Assembly: GCA_048939465.1 (NCBI GenBank)
Contig: JBHLPL010000112.1
Location: forward strand, 1-6,179
DNA: 6,179 nucleotides
Direction: 5' to 3'
DNA from: Promethearchaeota archaeon
Lineage (GTDB): Archaea; Asgardarchaeota; Odinarchaeia; Odinarchaeales; JBHLKK01
Below, piece by piece: positions 1 to 6,179 of this stretch. Each line of letters begins with the position of its first letter. Position 1 is the first letter of the stretch. The notes beneath the pieces were generated by a model, which ran no database searches, was not told where the DNA came from, and saw only the letters and a program-made list of their open reading frames with translations. A program made the position numbers and the translations under genes.

Positions 1-69
1 GATCCAGATGAGTTAAAGCGAAATCTAATGAAGATGGCAAATCGCTTGCAGAAATTTATAACGCTTTAG
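1..69 (+). CDS. 3' end of an unidentified gene, cut by the window start (DPDELKRNLMKMANRLQKFITL*)
   Basis: Frame 1 is open from base 1 to TAG at 67-69 and reads as a plausible amphipathic C-terminal helix. It is followed by a pyrimidine tract (70-84) and a TATA-like box. Too short to assign a family. Confidence 0.4.
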   Translation, partial: DPDELKRNLMKMANRLQKFITL

Positions 70-146: not shown

Positions 147-848
147 ATGTATATGCGTCTACTGGCTCGAGAGCTACCTGAAAAGTACAAAGGCGTCTTA
201 GCTGCTGCAGCAGTTCTTAGGGGGGCGATCGGAATTGAAAAGACCTATTCCCAGGTTTACGATTCCATATCGGCAGAAATTAAGGAAAAGATAAGAAGCA
301 AATATCCAGCTTATGAAGAGATATCCAAAAATCAGATAATCCAGCAATACAGAGATTTCTTTGTAGACAAGCTTGGTTTACCTTCTGGAGTCTCCCCTAC
401 GAGTGAAACCTATGCTAGGAAGGTTGTAGCGAACGAAGAACTGGCCACCATCAATCCCGTTGTGGATATTGGCAATCTTGTTGGTGCTTTTACAGGATTT
501 CCGATAAGCGTATATGACGCAGATGCAATCGGAGACACTCTTTATATAAGGCCTGCAGAGGCGGGAGAAGAGTTCTTAGGAATAGGGGGGAGAGAACCAC
601 GCATCCTAGAAGGCGATGAGCTGGTCTTATCGAGCGACCAAAACATCGTATGTCTATACCCCTATGCAGATGGCGAAAATGTAAAAATTACCGCTGAAGC
701 CAAGAATCTACTTGTTATGGTAAGCGGAATCCCGGGTGTGTTCGGACTATCACTCTTATGGGCGTTGAAAATCTGCGTCAAGTATCTCAGCAACCTAACT
801 GGAGGAACGCCTGAACTAGTATTACAGGAGGGATACGATGAGCAATAA
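147..848 (+). CDS. Standalone B3/B4 domain protein (PheRS beta-subunit editing-domain homologue; putative trans-acting aminoacyl-tRNA deacylase), 233 aa
   Basis: Family-like motifs YRDFF..LG, INPVVDIGN, PISVYDADAI..L.IR.A..GEEFLGIG, E.VL...IV..YPY, and SGIPGV. No other PheRS-beta domains are present. The stop codon (846-848) overlaps the proS start by 11 nt. Confidence 0.87.
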   Translation: MYMRLLARELPEKYKGVLAAAAVLRGAIGIEKTYSQVYDSISAEIKEKIRSKYPAYEEISKNQIIQQYRDFFVDKLGLPSGVSPTSETYARKVVANEELATINPVVDIGNLVGAFTGFPISVYDADAIGDTLYIRPAEAGEEFLGIGGREPRILEGDELVLSSDQNIVCLYPYADGENVKITAEAKNLLVMVSGIPGVFGLSLLWALKICVKYLSNLTGGTPELVLQEGYDEQ

Positions 849-2313
849 AGGAGATCTTGAAAAGCCAAAGATGCTTCCAAGAAAGGAGGATTTTGCTGAG
901 TGGTACAATGAGGTTTTGTCCCTCGCTTCCATAATTGATTATTCATATCCTGTTAAGGGCATGGGAGTCTGGATTGATTATGGCTGGAAACTACGGAACA
1001 ACATCATGAACGTTATACGTCATTTGCTTGACGAAACAGGGCATAGAGAATTCTACTTCCCCTTTCTAATTCCTGAAAATATATTCGACAAGGAAAGCGA
1101 ACTGGCCAGCGGTTTTGAGGAGGAAGTGTACTGGGTAACCAAAGGCGGCACAAAACCTTTGAGCGTCAAACTGGCAATTAGGCCAACAAGTGAGACTTCA
1201 ATGTATCACATGTTTTCCAAGTGGATAAGGAGCTATACCGACCTTCCCCTAAAGGCATGGCAGCTTGTCTCAATTTTCAGATACGAAACAAGAGCCACAA
1301 AACCCTTAATAAGAGTACGCGAAGTGACTTCCTTTAAGGAAGCTCATACTGCTCATGCAACAGCAGAGGAAGCTGAACAGCAAGTAAAGGAAGCTGTTGA
1401 CATCTACAGAAGATTCTTTGACGCATTATGCATCCCTTATGTGATTTCCAAAAGACCTGATTATGACAAGTTTCCGGGCGCGGTATATACCATCGCATTT
1501 GAGACAGTCTTCCCAGATGGTCGAACTCTCCAAATCGGTTCAGTTCATTTTCATGCGGAGAATTTCGCCAGAGCATTTGACGTGAAGTACATTGATCAGG
1601 ATGGTAAAATGAACTACTCAAATACGACCTGCTACGGAATTTCAGAACGAGTTATTGCCAGCGAGATTGCAGTTCATGGAGATGATCATGGATTAGTACT
1701 CCCGCCAGACGTTGCACCGAAGCAGATCGTGATAGTACCTATACTCTTTGAATCTGATCCCAAAGTTGTTGAATACGCCCAAGGGATTTATGAAAAAGTC
1801 AAAGAGTCCTATACTGCAGAACTTGACACTCGAAACTTGAGGCCTGGAAGGAAGTTCTACGATTGGGAATTAAAAGGGGTCCCAGTTAGGCTCGAGATTG
1901 GTCCTGGAGAGGTGGGGGGCAGGTCTGTTACGGTATTTAGGCGAGATACTCTCAAGAAAGAAAAGGTGCCTTTGGACGATTTTGGCGAATATATAGACAC
2001 TTTGATGGACACCATTACTCGTGATATGTATGAAAGAGCGTGGAAAACCTTCAACTCCAAGAAACACGACGTATCCGCCTTCTTCTCGTTTGAAGATGAG
2101 TCAGACGCTGTATCGTCGTTGATTGACGCAGAATCGGGAGATTTCTTTGGAAGTGTCGCCAATGTTCCGATTTGTGGAGACATTAAGTGCGAACTGAAAA
2201 TCAAAGAGTACATAGATATTCTGGGCAGTCCTGTGGAAGACATTCCACCAAAAGGAAGCTGCATCTGTGGGAAAAAGGCTGAGAGAGTGATTAGAGTATC
2301 AAGGCAGTATTAG
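838..2313 (+). CDS. proS: Proline--tRNA ligase, archaeal/eukaryotic type (no INS editing domain), 491 aa
   Basis: F.EWYNEV, YPVKG, LAIRPTSET, motif 2 FRYETRATKPLIRVRE..FKEAH, motif 3 CYGISER, HGDD.GLVLPP..AP.Q, anticodon-binding domain RPG.KFYDWELKGVP.RLEIGP, C-terminal Cys cluster and terminal Tyr. GGAGG RBS at 827-831. Confidence 0.98.
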   Translation: MSNKGDLEKPKMLPRKEDFAEWYNEVLSLASIIDYSYPVKGMGVWIDYGWKLRNNIMNVIRHLLDETGHREFYFPFLIPENIFDKESELASGFEEEVYWVTKGGTKPLSVKLAIRPTSETSMYHMFSKWIRSYTDLPLKAWQLVSIFRYETRATKPLIRVREVTSFKEAHTAHATAEEAEQQVKEAVDIYRRFFDALCIPYVISKRPDYDKFPGAVYTIAFETVFPDGRTLQIGSVHFHAENFARAFDVKYIDQDGKMNYSNTTCYGISERVIASEIAVHGDDHGLVLPPDVAPKQIVIVPILFESDPKVVEYAQGIYEKVKESYTAELDTRNLRPGRKFYDWELKGVPVRLEIGPGEVGGRSVTVFRRDTLKKEKVPLDDFGEYIDTLMDTITRDMYERAWKTFNSKKHDVSAFFSFEDESDAVSSLIDAESGDFFGSVANVPICGDIKCELKIKEYIDILGSPVEDIPPKGSCICGKKAERVIRVSRQY

Positions 2314-2516: not shown

Positions 2517-3233
2517 GTGTTCGAGAAGGATACCATGGGCTATGACCGTGCAATAACAGTATTCAATCCTGAAGGCAGATTATTCCAAGTTGAATACGCT
2601 ATCGAAGCTGTTAAACACGGTACTCCTGCTGTCGGGATTAAGGCCAAAGATGGCGTCGTCATAGTCGTGCAGAAAAAAAGTGCAACTAATCTTATGGATC
2701 CTGTCAGCGCAAAAAAGCTATTCATCGTAGACGATCATATCATTACCGCTTTATCGGGACTTCATGCAGACGGGCGTATACTTCTAGAGCATGCTCAGGT
2801 TCAGGCACAAATTGAAAAGCTAACCTACGCTGACCCCATATTGATTGAGACTCTGACAAAGAAGATCAGCGATACAAAGCAACTATACACTCAGAGAAGC
2901 GGCATTCGTCCTTTCGGCGTGGCATTGCTTATTGCAGGTGTTGATGCAAAGGGTCCGCAGCTTTATACGACAGACCCGAGCGGTACGTATTATGGCTGGC
3001 AAGCAACCTCGATCGGAAGTGACGCGGCCATTAAGCCATACCTTACAAAAAGATATAAGCCAGGCATGAATCTTGACTCTGCTGTTCTCTTGGGCGTTAA
3101 ATCAATAGCTAAGGCTGTTGAGACTATCTCTTCGGATATGATCCAAATAGGCACAGTCGATGCAAGAACCCAGAAGGCTCACATACTCTCGAATGAAGAG
3201 ACAGATAAATACCTTGTTGAAAAAAAAGAATGA
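2517..3233 (+). CDS. psmA: 20S proteasome alpha subunit, 238 aa (GTG start; ATG 2535 is an alternative)
   Basis: Signature GYDRAITVFNPEGRLFQVEYA, plus YTQRSGIRPFGVALLIAG and TDPSGTY. GGTG RBS at 2506-2509 lies 7 nt before GTG 2517. Archaeal alpha subunits usually have about 5-8 residues before YDR, which supports the GTG start. Confidence 0.97.
   Translation: MFEKDTMGYDRAITVFNPEGRLFQVEYAIEAVKHGTPAVGIKAKDGVVIVVQKKSATNLMDPVSAKKLFIVDDHIITALSGLHADGRILLEHAQVQAQIEKLTYADPILIETLTKKISDTKQLYTQRSGIRPFGVALLIAGVDAKGPQLYTTDPSGTYYGWQATSIGSDAAIKPYLTKRYKPGMNLDSAVLLGVKSIAKAVETISSDMIQIGTVDARTQKAHILSNEETDKYLVEKKE
3218..3230 (-). terminator. Putative oligo-T terminator of the NYN gene, embedded in the last codons of psmA
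   Basis: A8 at 3220-3227 reads TTCTTTTTTTTC on the minus strand, 14 nt after the NYN stop. Archaeal intrinsic terminators are U-rich tracts. Confidence 0.45.
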
Positions 3234-5057: not shown

Positions 5058-5193
5058 AAGCTCGGGAGTTCAGTCTAGTGATTCTGCATGGTGTTTGAAA
5101 TCAGTGTGAATCAGAACCCTGGATTTGGCGTGGACTATTTCCTGCGTCGATAATCAATTCCCATACTCACCAGGAATATGGCAGGGTGGTTTT

Positions 5194-5987
5194 ATGGCTA
5201 GTGTAGAAGAACACCTTTCTAATAGAAAGGCGATCAGAGAGAGTAAGATAACCGAAGCTCTTCGAATAATTGATGCAGCAAGAGAGAATGGTGTGGTATT
5301 GCGGTTAATAGGTGGCCTGGCTGCTCGGAACCATTGTAAGATAATTAATTTCTGTGAGAGGGATTACTCAGACATAGATATGGTGGGTTTGAGCAGACAT
5401 GTTAAGAAGATCGCCGAATTGTTCAAGAAGCACGGATATAAAGAAAACAAAGATGTTATGATTGCAACGGCCGGTCACAGAATGCAGTTTTATAAGGGGA
5501 GCCCTGAAAACCATGTGGACATTTTTATAGATACTTTCGAAATGGAACACGACGTTGAGCTGAAGAATAGACTCACAATTGAGGATTATACGATAACATT
5601 GGCCGATCTGCTGCTCACCAAACTCCAAATATATAAAATAAATGAGAAAGATGTTCGGGACATACTTAGCACCGTAAAAGATAATTCAATAGGAGACGAG
5701 GACAAGCCCGGCATCATTAATGTCAAATACATTGCTAGAATCTGTGCGAAAAATTGGGGTCTGTACCACGATATGCTGGAAAACATCGAAAAGTGTCTTG
5801 GACTTATGCAGTATTATGATCTAACTCCCGATGAGGTCAGAATAATAACGGAAAGAATGAACATGTTGAGGGAAGCCATTGAGGATGAGCCCAAATCCCT
5901 GAAGTGGAAGCTGAGGGCCAGAATTGGTGAAAGAAAAGCTTGGAGAAAGGCGGTAGAAGATGAAACAAGAGATCTCAAGGAAAGATC
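5194..5987 (+). CDS. Uncharacterised nucleotidyltransferase-fold protein (DNA pol-beta superfamily), about 264 aa, 3' end clipped at a chimeric junction
   Basis: LIGGLA...RDYSDIDMV (GG...DxD), third acidic residue in HVDIF, then ADLLLTKLQI..INEKD..D, WGLY and PKSLKWKLRARIGER, as in a widespread uncharacterised archaeal/bacterial family. GGGTGG RBS at 5184-5189 before ATG 5194. No in-frame stop occurs before the foreign DNA. Confidence 0.8.
5984..5987. other. Probable chimeric junction at a GATC (Sau3AI/MboI) site
   Basis: PepP similarity on the minus strand ends at the codon next to this GATC, and the nucleotidyltransferase similarity ends just before it. The window also starts with GATC. 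Confidence 0.65.
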
Positions 5988-6179
5988 AGTAATCGAAGCA
6001 GATACTTTCATTTTTTCTATTTCTTCGGCACTCTTGACCAGGCGCAGTTCATGCACGATGTGGTTGAGATCGGTGAATTCACCCGGCGGTACGGCCCCCG
6101 AGGCCTCCTTGCTGCGAATGGTGTTGACCCAGCTCATGATCTGCCGGTCGAACTCCGCGCTGCGACCCATCGAGTAGTA
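5988..6179 (-). CDS. pepP: Internal fragment of a bacterial (proteobacterial-type) Xaa-Pro aminopeptidase P, 64 codons, incomplete at both ends
   Basis: The frame is open from the window end: YYSMGRSAEFDRQIMSWVNTIRSKEASGAVPPGEFTDLNHIVHELRLVKSAEEIEKMKVSASIT. This matches the PepP N-domain/linker pattern (YY.MG...EFD...W.N..RSK...G..PP.EF..L.H..H..RL.KS..E...M....I[ST]). GC is about 60% over 6031-6179 by hand count, against about 36% in sampled 60-nt lines of the adjacent gene. Confidence 0.88.

Follow-up and report, generated by a model that had tools for sequence, protein, structure and literature searches.

A standalone B3/B4-domain protein encoded with archaeal-type prolyl-tRNA synthetase in Odinarchaeia, a candidate docked proofreading subunit

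The stretch of DNA analysed here, hereafter the window, is the whole 6,179-nt contig JBHLPL010000112.1 (G000:C52) of a 1.96-Mb metagenome-assembled genome of a Promethearchaeota archaeon from the Odinarchaeia (G000, 91% complete). It carries on the forward strand a gene for a standalone B3/B4-domain protein, which we call B34, directly followed by proS, coding for prolyl-tRNA synthetase (ProRS). The open reading frame (ORF) of B34 spans positions 147-848 and would give 233 aa from the ATG at 147, or 231 aa from the ATG at 153, the likelier start because close homologues begin with MRLL (coding region 153-848). It is preceded by a Shine-Dalgarno-like element (GTGGAGAG, 137-144) and, about 55 nt 5' of the start, by the TATA-box-like TTTTATAA (92-99), a putative archaeal promoter element; by eye, nothing comparable was seen in the ~100 nt that close the upstream gene. 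The proS ORF (838-2313) encodes 491 aa, and its own Shine-Dalgarno sequence (AGGAGGG, 826-832), 5 nt before the ATG at 838, is located within the coding region of B34, whose stop codon TAA (846-848) closes an 11-nt overlap between the two frames (838-848). Both the overlap and the internal ribosome-binding site had been pointed out in an earlier note on this DNA, and both hold. Contigs from four other metagenome runs (two further studies; mangrove and other samples) span positions 1-2600 at 99% identity at least, with no indels, and bridge the overlap, which is therefore not an assembly artefact.

The synthetase combines the Pfam domains tRNA-synt_2b, HGTP_anticodon and ProRS-C_1 (residues 440-491), has a C-terminal Zn-binding domain, and terminates in ...RQY, i.e. 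in a tyrosine. It matches the equivalog-level NCBIfam model TIGR00408 with 529 bits (cut-off 437), as an enzyme of the archaeal/eukaryote type. A Pfam scan gave no match to the YbaK/ProX/INS family (PF04073, tRNA_edit) in either ProRS or B34, in agreement with the description of an editing-less, archaeal-type ProRS given in the earlier note. It is the only ProRS found in the source genome, which also has a complete PheRS beta gene (pheT) elsewhere. We found no PF04073 protein in this genome, nor in two genomes of the same genus (G001, G002) and four of Odinarchaeum (G003-G006). B34 belongs to the Pfam family B3_4 (PF03483; 75.7 bits, cut-off 29.3; residues 70-195). Its AlphaFold2 model has a predicted local distance difference test score (pLDDT) of 92.2 and a predicted template-modelling score of 0.89. 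The best Foldseek match is the deacylase CtdA (PDB 9mkl and 9f7e; template-modelling score 0.76-0.78), then PheRS beta, and the top 35 matches are made up of CtdA, PheRS beta and LRRC47. Similarity to CtdA in sequence is low (phmmer E 5e-4, ~20% identity), and a word-indexed protein search with B34 returned three close homologues only.

The earlier note had considered that linkage to proS might be limited to this contig or a few close relatives. This is not the case, and the pair recurs throughout a deep clade. A B3/4 gene lies directly before proS in the four Odinarchaeum genomes and in Candidatus Odinarchaeota J65_bin.29, which has the closest ProRS in a named genome (61% identity). The B34s of these Odin members are 28-31% identical to that of the window, and their ProRSs 59-61% over the full length. 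An exhaustive search of 1.84 billion representatives, with a profile made from the closest relatives of B34, yielded 1,732 family members. The four best clusters beyond the window's own (P0004-P0007) all immediately precede a ProRS gene and differ in their outer neighbours. P0012 also precedes one, its next ORF starting with MSGKVDKPKLLPSKSDF..., a ProRS N-terminus. Mutual identity among the linked clusters P0004, P0005, P0006, P0007 and P0012 is below 50%. Across the linked lineages, identity to the window goes down to ~28% for B34 and to 50% for ProRS, and the spacing of the two genes ranges from a 20-nt overlap to a 9-nt gap. The B34s of P0009 and P0010 were not placed before a ProRS gene, and a further relative, P0008, is on a 941-nt contig too short to show a neighbour. 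No B3/4 gene lies within 2.5 kb of proS at any of 79 further named archaeal loci, and proS is not found near any of 41 additional Asgard B34 genes sampled across families (flanks of ~1.5-2.5 kb). A search of 400 Asgard genomes with the P0004 ProRS retrieved nothing above 54% identity. The linkage is restricted to one lineage, and is not a general trait of standalone B3/B4 proteins. In Odinarchaeum and the P0007 lineage (L011, L017, L018, L020, L038), a divergent gene for a 135-aa RHH/NikR_C-type regulator precedes the pair; it is absent from the window.

A phylogeny of 118 B3/4 sequences unites every proS-linked member, together with P0008, in one clade (SH-like approximate likelihood-ratio test, 97), and the second B3/4 protein of the source genome and the Odin paralogues are placed outside it. 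The window B34 branches among archaeal standalone B3/B4 proteins as part of a derived clade. The eight ProRSs with an upstream B34 gene likewise form one clade (support 99) in a FastTree phylogeny of 87 sequences, in which the window sits beside Odinarchaeum and long branches lead to L033 and L035. B34 and ProRS branch in matching order, with P0004-P0006 basal and the window and Odin groups derived. These phylogenies indicate that the B34-proS pair arose once, anciently, and was inherited, or moved, as a unit.

The surroundings of the pair are informative on this last point. The left edge is the 3' end of an upstream gene (positions 1-69, forward strand; ...MANRLQKFITL*). To the right lies psmA, coding for the proteasome alpha subunit (2517-3233, forward strand; NF003075, 303 bits), and the order B34-proS-psmA-NYN is common to the window and the Odinarchaeum genome G003. 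The psmA and NYN genes of the window are 83% and 94-95% identical, respectively, to those of the same-genus G001 and G002, which places the contig in their lineage. These two genomes keep the flanking genes, the upstream gene (...NRLQKFI) leading straight into the psmA leader, and the ~2.2-kb B34-proS cassette is absent (comparison loci G001:C66 (L149:1387-2916), G002:C159 (L152), G001:C38 (L150) and G002:C138 (L151)). The gap falls at a short stretch of local similarity: similar short sequences, GCAGTCACTTCGTGGAG (124-143) and AGACAGCGTGCGAAGAA (2366-2383), flank the cassette in the window, and the empty site of G001 has one hybrid copy. This single hybrid copy suggests that the cassette was deleted or inserted by recombination between the two flanking stretches. 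G001 and G002 code for a ProRS at another locus, 34-37% identical to that of the window (the G002 copy is cut by the contig end), whose closest relatives among 86 collected archaeal ProRSs are of euryarchaeal type (~45% identical). Both genomes retain the canonical B3/4 paralogue. ProRS has been displaced within a single genus, as seen in G001 and G002 against the window genome.

We also predicted the structure of ProRS together with B34, a check proposed in the earlier note. The complex scored 0.90 in all three runs, against 0.00 for the best of three controls. Among solved complexes, 58 of 80 attain the 0.90 mark, as do 2 of 110 mismatched pairs, a calibration that holds only roughly here, as our own alignments were fed to the prediction. 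Contacts agree between runs at 98% or above, and partner pLDDT is at least 89. We know of no solved complex of this kind, which makes it improbable that the prediction merely reproduces a memorised structure. On the B34 side, the predicted interface includes residues 197-213 (the FGLSLLWALKICVKYL helix; codons at 741-791), the C-terminal tail 220-230 (TPELVLQEGY; codons at 810-842) and a few N-terminal residues. On the ProRS side, it includes residues 416-436 (codons at 2083-2145), residues 450-459 in the Zn-domain segment KIKEYID (codons at 2185-2214), plus 476 and 489. The first of these ProRS segments is part of an insertion (410-436), located before the Zn-binding domain, that the ProRS alignment shows to be confined to the B34-linked clade, together with a 2-residue deletion near 456. 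Neither feature is present in the complete ProRS of G001 or in any other archaeal ProRS displayed (~28 of the set).

The predicted surface of B34 is conserved in the same clade-specific manner. The mean frequency of the major residue in interface columns is 0.64 in linked B34s versus 0.33 in 96 non-linked standalone proteins, and in the remaining columns 0.52 versus 0.49. Residues L201, L202 and K206 never vary within the linked clade, the helix motif LLWALK is absent from the non-linked paralogues, and an LxLQE tail is common to the window, P0007, P0012 and Odin members. The pocket residues are outside the predicted interface. Conservation of the operon, sequence features specific to the clade and the predicted complex are mutually independent, and all three favour a subunit docked non-covalently on ProRS over a trans-editor that diffuses freely. 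That B34 binds ProRS appears quite probable on this evidence, the model lending support rather than proof. The earlier note had proposed a ProRS-dedicated trans-editor; the tie to ProRS is strengthened by the congruent trees and the clade-specific interface, and it is the freely acting trans-editor that gives way to a predicted docked subunit.

Concerning the active site, we mapped B34 to CtdA numbering using the phmmer alignment and the residues reported for the pocket and for catalysis (PMC12449066, PMC12268091). The canonical archaeal motifs RPxxEALxRR, AYN and YPYRD are not kept in the window, which has SPTSETYARK, IGN and YPYAD (in full YPYADG) in their place. The earlier note was right in regarding its pocket motifs as diverged, the canonical motifs being kept in 85-95 of the 96 non-linked homologues. 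These 96 proteins conserve E82 (in 95), L84 (90), R86 (90), R87 (89), N105 (94), R172 (85) and D173 (94), and the basal linked P0004-P0006 keep every one of these residues as well as the canonical motifs. The window B34 itself keeps E87, R91, K92, N110, C169 and D175 (own numbering). Its N110 is the equivalent of N105 of CtdA, which is essential in that enzyme (PMC12449066).

Weighing these data, we lean, by a little, towards the reading that the window B34 is a dedicated ProRS subunit for post-transfer proofreading of mischarged tRNA-Pro, on the strength of sequence and structural modelling. A deacylase activity and its substrates are suggested by fold and context. A single message would carry the two genes, and their overlapping or abutting frames would be translated from it. 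The C-terminal helix (LLWALKxxVK) and tail of B34 would then dock on the insertion next to the C-terminal Zn-binding domain of ProRS, leaving the substrate pocket of B34 free. ProRS is known to err with Ala and Cys. B34 would most likely take the 3' end of a tRNA-Pro wrongly charged with such a small amino acid and hydrolyse the ester bond, by analogy with B3/B4 in PheRS and with CtdA in trans. A more specific proposal, which we make tentatively, is that of an Odinarchaeia-type two-subunit ProRS, where a B3/B4 module coming from the standalone family is docked on the insertion and has its polar pocket (R172, D173, L84) rebuilt into a small aromatic/hydrophobic one, clearing Ala-tRNA-Pro and possibly Cys-tRNA-Pro.

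Several observations weigh against a proofreading subunit. The lack of PF04073 in the genomes with the B34-proS pair does not discriminate, since the family is present in 9 of 41 genomes of the phylum and most of the phylum also has no match. The linkage has a single origin, its many instances thereby not being independent, and the joint loss in G001 and G002 could be one deletion of neighbouring genes. The pocket has changed in the derived linked subclade (n=8: the window trio, P0007, P0012 and Odin). L84 is replaced by Y/F in 8/8 members, R172 by A/V/I/D in 8/8, Y104 by G/V/I/L, and G116 by F in 6/8; the Odin members also lack R86, R87 and D173, and the window has Y89, G109, S121 and A174. 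This divergence could be read either as retargeting to a small substrate, for example Ala, or as catalytic loss. The latter may apply, as bulky residues at G116 (G116H, G116W) inactivate CtdA (PMC12449066). Carried to its end, catalytic loss would make B34 a ProRS-bound pseudo-enzyme, its B3/4 fold serving as a scaffold or tRNA-binding surface, e.g. to aid binding or release of tRNA-Pro or to stabilise the synthetase, with editing chemistry surviving only in the basal P0004-P0006. We regard this, the main rival reading, as unlikely, although it accounts for the loss of the family-wide residues L84, R86/R87, Y104 and R172 (and D173 in Odin), for a phenylalanine at the G116 position alongside a highly conserved docking helix, and for the variation of position 121 between S, F and C among sequences 73-81% identical. 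Yet the N105 equivalent is kept in 7/8 derived members and E82 in 6/8, YPY is invariant, and the pocket is unburied in the predicted interface. The replacements are moreover consistent: an aromatic residue always takes the place of L84, and a small or hydrophobic one that of R172. Such regularity suggests that the pocket came under a new constraint rather than decayed. The aromatic/hydrophobic nature of the replacements is what one would expect of a pocket remodelled to take a small, non-polar side chain, and the INS pocket specific for Ala is likewise hydrophobic.

Two other explanations dispense with a functional complex. B34 may be a free archaeal deacylase of the CtdA-2 type, with a substrate unrelated to proline, and share an operon with proS merely for co-expression of the translation machinery. 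Standalone B3/4 proteins are indeed common in Asgard archaea (147/400 sampled genomes) and mostly have unrelated neighbours, and in the AlaX family about half of the standalone deacylases are encoded near some synthetase (PMC13149037). This explanation is nevertheless improbable: the genome already has a canonical paralogue elsewhere, the proS-linked copies form a clade of their own, whose conserved surface is absent from non-linked copies and is matched by clade-specific ProRS insertions, the complex score stands far above the controls, and B34 and proS are present or absent as a unit. That the adjacency arose by neutral accident in one lineage and links the two genes in no functional way is suggested by its single origin and by its not being seen at other archaeal proS loci, but is hardly credible when overlapping or abutting frames are kept while B34 diverges to ~28% identity and the outer neighbours change, and when the conserved B34 interface has its counterpart in the ProRS insertions.

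A docked editing subunit of this kind would differ from each of the systems it resembles. CtdA, the canavanyl-tRNA-Arg deacylase, was described as the first trans-editor with a B3/B4 fold (PMC10018355, PMC12268091). Like B34 it is a standalone protein of ~230 aa, and its N105 and C166 have equivalents in N110 and C169. These two are all that the window B34 keeps of the CtdA-1 residue set Y104, N105, G116, E118, C166, Q173 and E191, the others being changed (Y104 to G, G116 to S, E118 to Y, Q173 to D, E191 to S), and R172 also differs. Moreover, CtdA acts free in solution on tRNA-Arg, whereas B34 is encoded with ProRS and predicted to be docked on it. The CtdA-2 clade holds all archaeal homologues, with a function that is unknown and possibly different, and with no mention of a ProRS linkage (PMC12449066); the canonical archaeal standalone B3/4 proteins probably correspond to this clade. 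The B3/B4 domain of PheRS beta shares PF03483 and the fold with B34, and is likewise an editing module beside the active site of a class II synthetase, but it edits Tyr-tRNA-Phe as an integral, covalently joined portion of the beta subunit, whereas B34 is a separate polypeptide paired with ProRS. With YbaK, ProXp-ala and INS, the likeness lies in the proposed role, clearing the errors of a ProRS devoid of INS. The folds are unrelated, and B34 is proposed to dock next to the C-terminal Zn domain of archaeal ProRS, on an insertion peculiar to its lineage. YbaK has been reported to act in a ProRS-YbaK-tRNA complex, an editing complex whose stoichiometry has been addressed (PMC6344894).

If the proposed role is correct, ProRS proofreading would have been solved independently for a third time, INS and YbaK/ProXp being the other two solutions, and B34 would be the first B3/B4 editor to work as a subunit of a synthetase other than PheRS. 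Every proline-codon proofreading activity that we know of uses the INS/YbaK/ProXp fold, and the B3/B4 fold is known to us only from PheRS editing and from the free-standing CtdA. A full-text literature search, whose coverage leaves out most subscription journals, found no description of a B3/B4-ProRS system. A docked B3/B4 domain that has co-evolved with ProRS would show editing domains to be interchangeable parts that different synthetases can recruit, and the LysRS, MetRS and ArgRS fusions described below agree with this. It would also provide a natural series of pocket retargeting or retirement, going from the canonical paralogue through the basal linked proteins, with their canonical pocket, to the derived ones with a rebuilt pocket. 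The system is limited to one archaeal lineage and mechanistically distinctive, and its hosts, the Asgard archaea, are of wide interest for their translation apparatus.

In the wider family, the exhaustive profile search recovered B3/4 modules fused to class II LysRS (three proteins, one of which adds tRNA_bind and HD domains), class I LysRS, MetRS and ArgRS (with two B3/4 copies), and one further match fused to a tRNA_bind domain alone (fusion proteins P0117, P0135, P0136, P0066, P0152, P0058 and P0122). We found no description of these architectures in the literature searched. In the 118-sequence tree, the synthetase-fused modules cluster towards the base of the standalone family. No ProRS-B34 fusion is present among the profile matches, and a search for longer proteins gave PheRS beta only, although this search was word-limited and is weak evidence. 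Judging from these sequences, the B3/4 module is one that has been recruited repeatedly, mostly by synthetases for long-chain amino acids, and ProRS is an odd partner, which fits the rebuilt pocket of B34. The fusions resemble the ProRS-B34 pair in that the same module was recruited by synthetases other than PheRS, but they are covalent, and their partners, unlike ProRS, activate long-chain amino acids.

The second standalone B3/4 protein of the source genome (G000:C23; L001:1285-1989) is 32% identical to B34 and has the canonical motifs RPAGEALIRR and YPHRD. Its gene follows a radical-SAM gene and is itself followed by an IFT52-GIFT/ABC_transp_aux-like gene, and orthologues are present in Odinarchaeum and many other Asgard genomes. 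The distribution of standalone B3/4 proteins among Asgard families is uneven, from 0/31 genomes in family f4 and 6/135 in f9 to 19/22 in f22, and in some Asgard genomes (G031, G141, G143, G144, G314) the B3/4 match is broken by a stop codon.

At the right-hand end of the window, an ORF with a weak NTP_transf_5 match (5125-6177) reaches the end of the contig. The final ~65 residues of this ORF (~5980-6177) are of low complexity and overlap a 118-aa ORF on the opposite strand (5814-6170), making its true 3' end uncertain. Similarity to this ORF covers residues 19-213 in G001 and 19-136 in G002 only, where the compared stretches stop.

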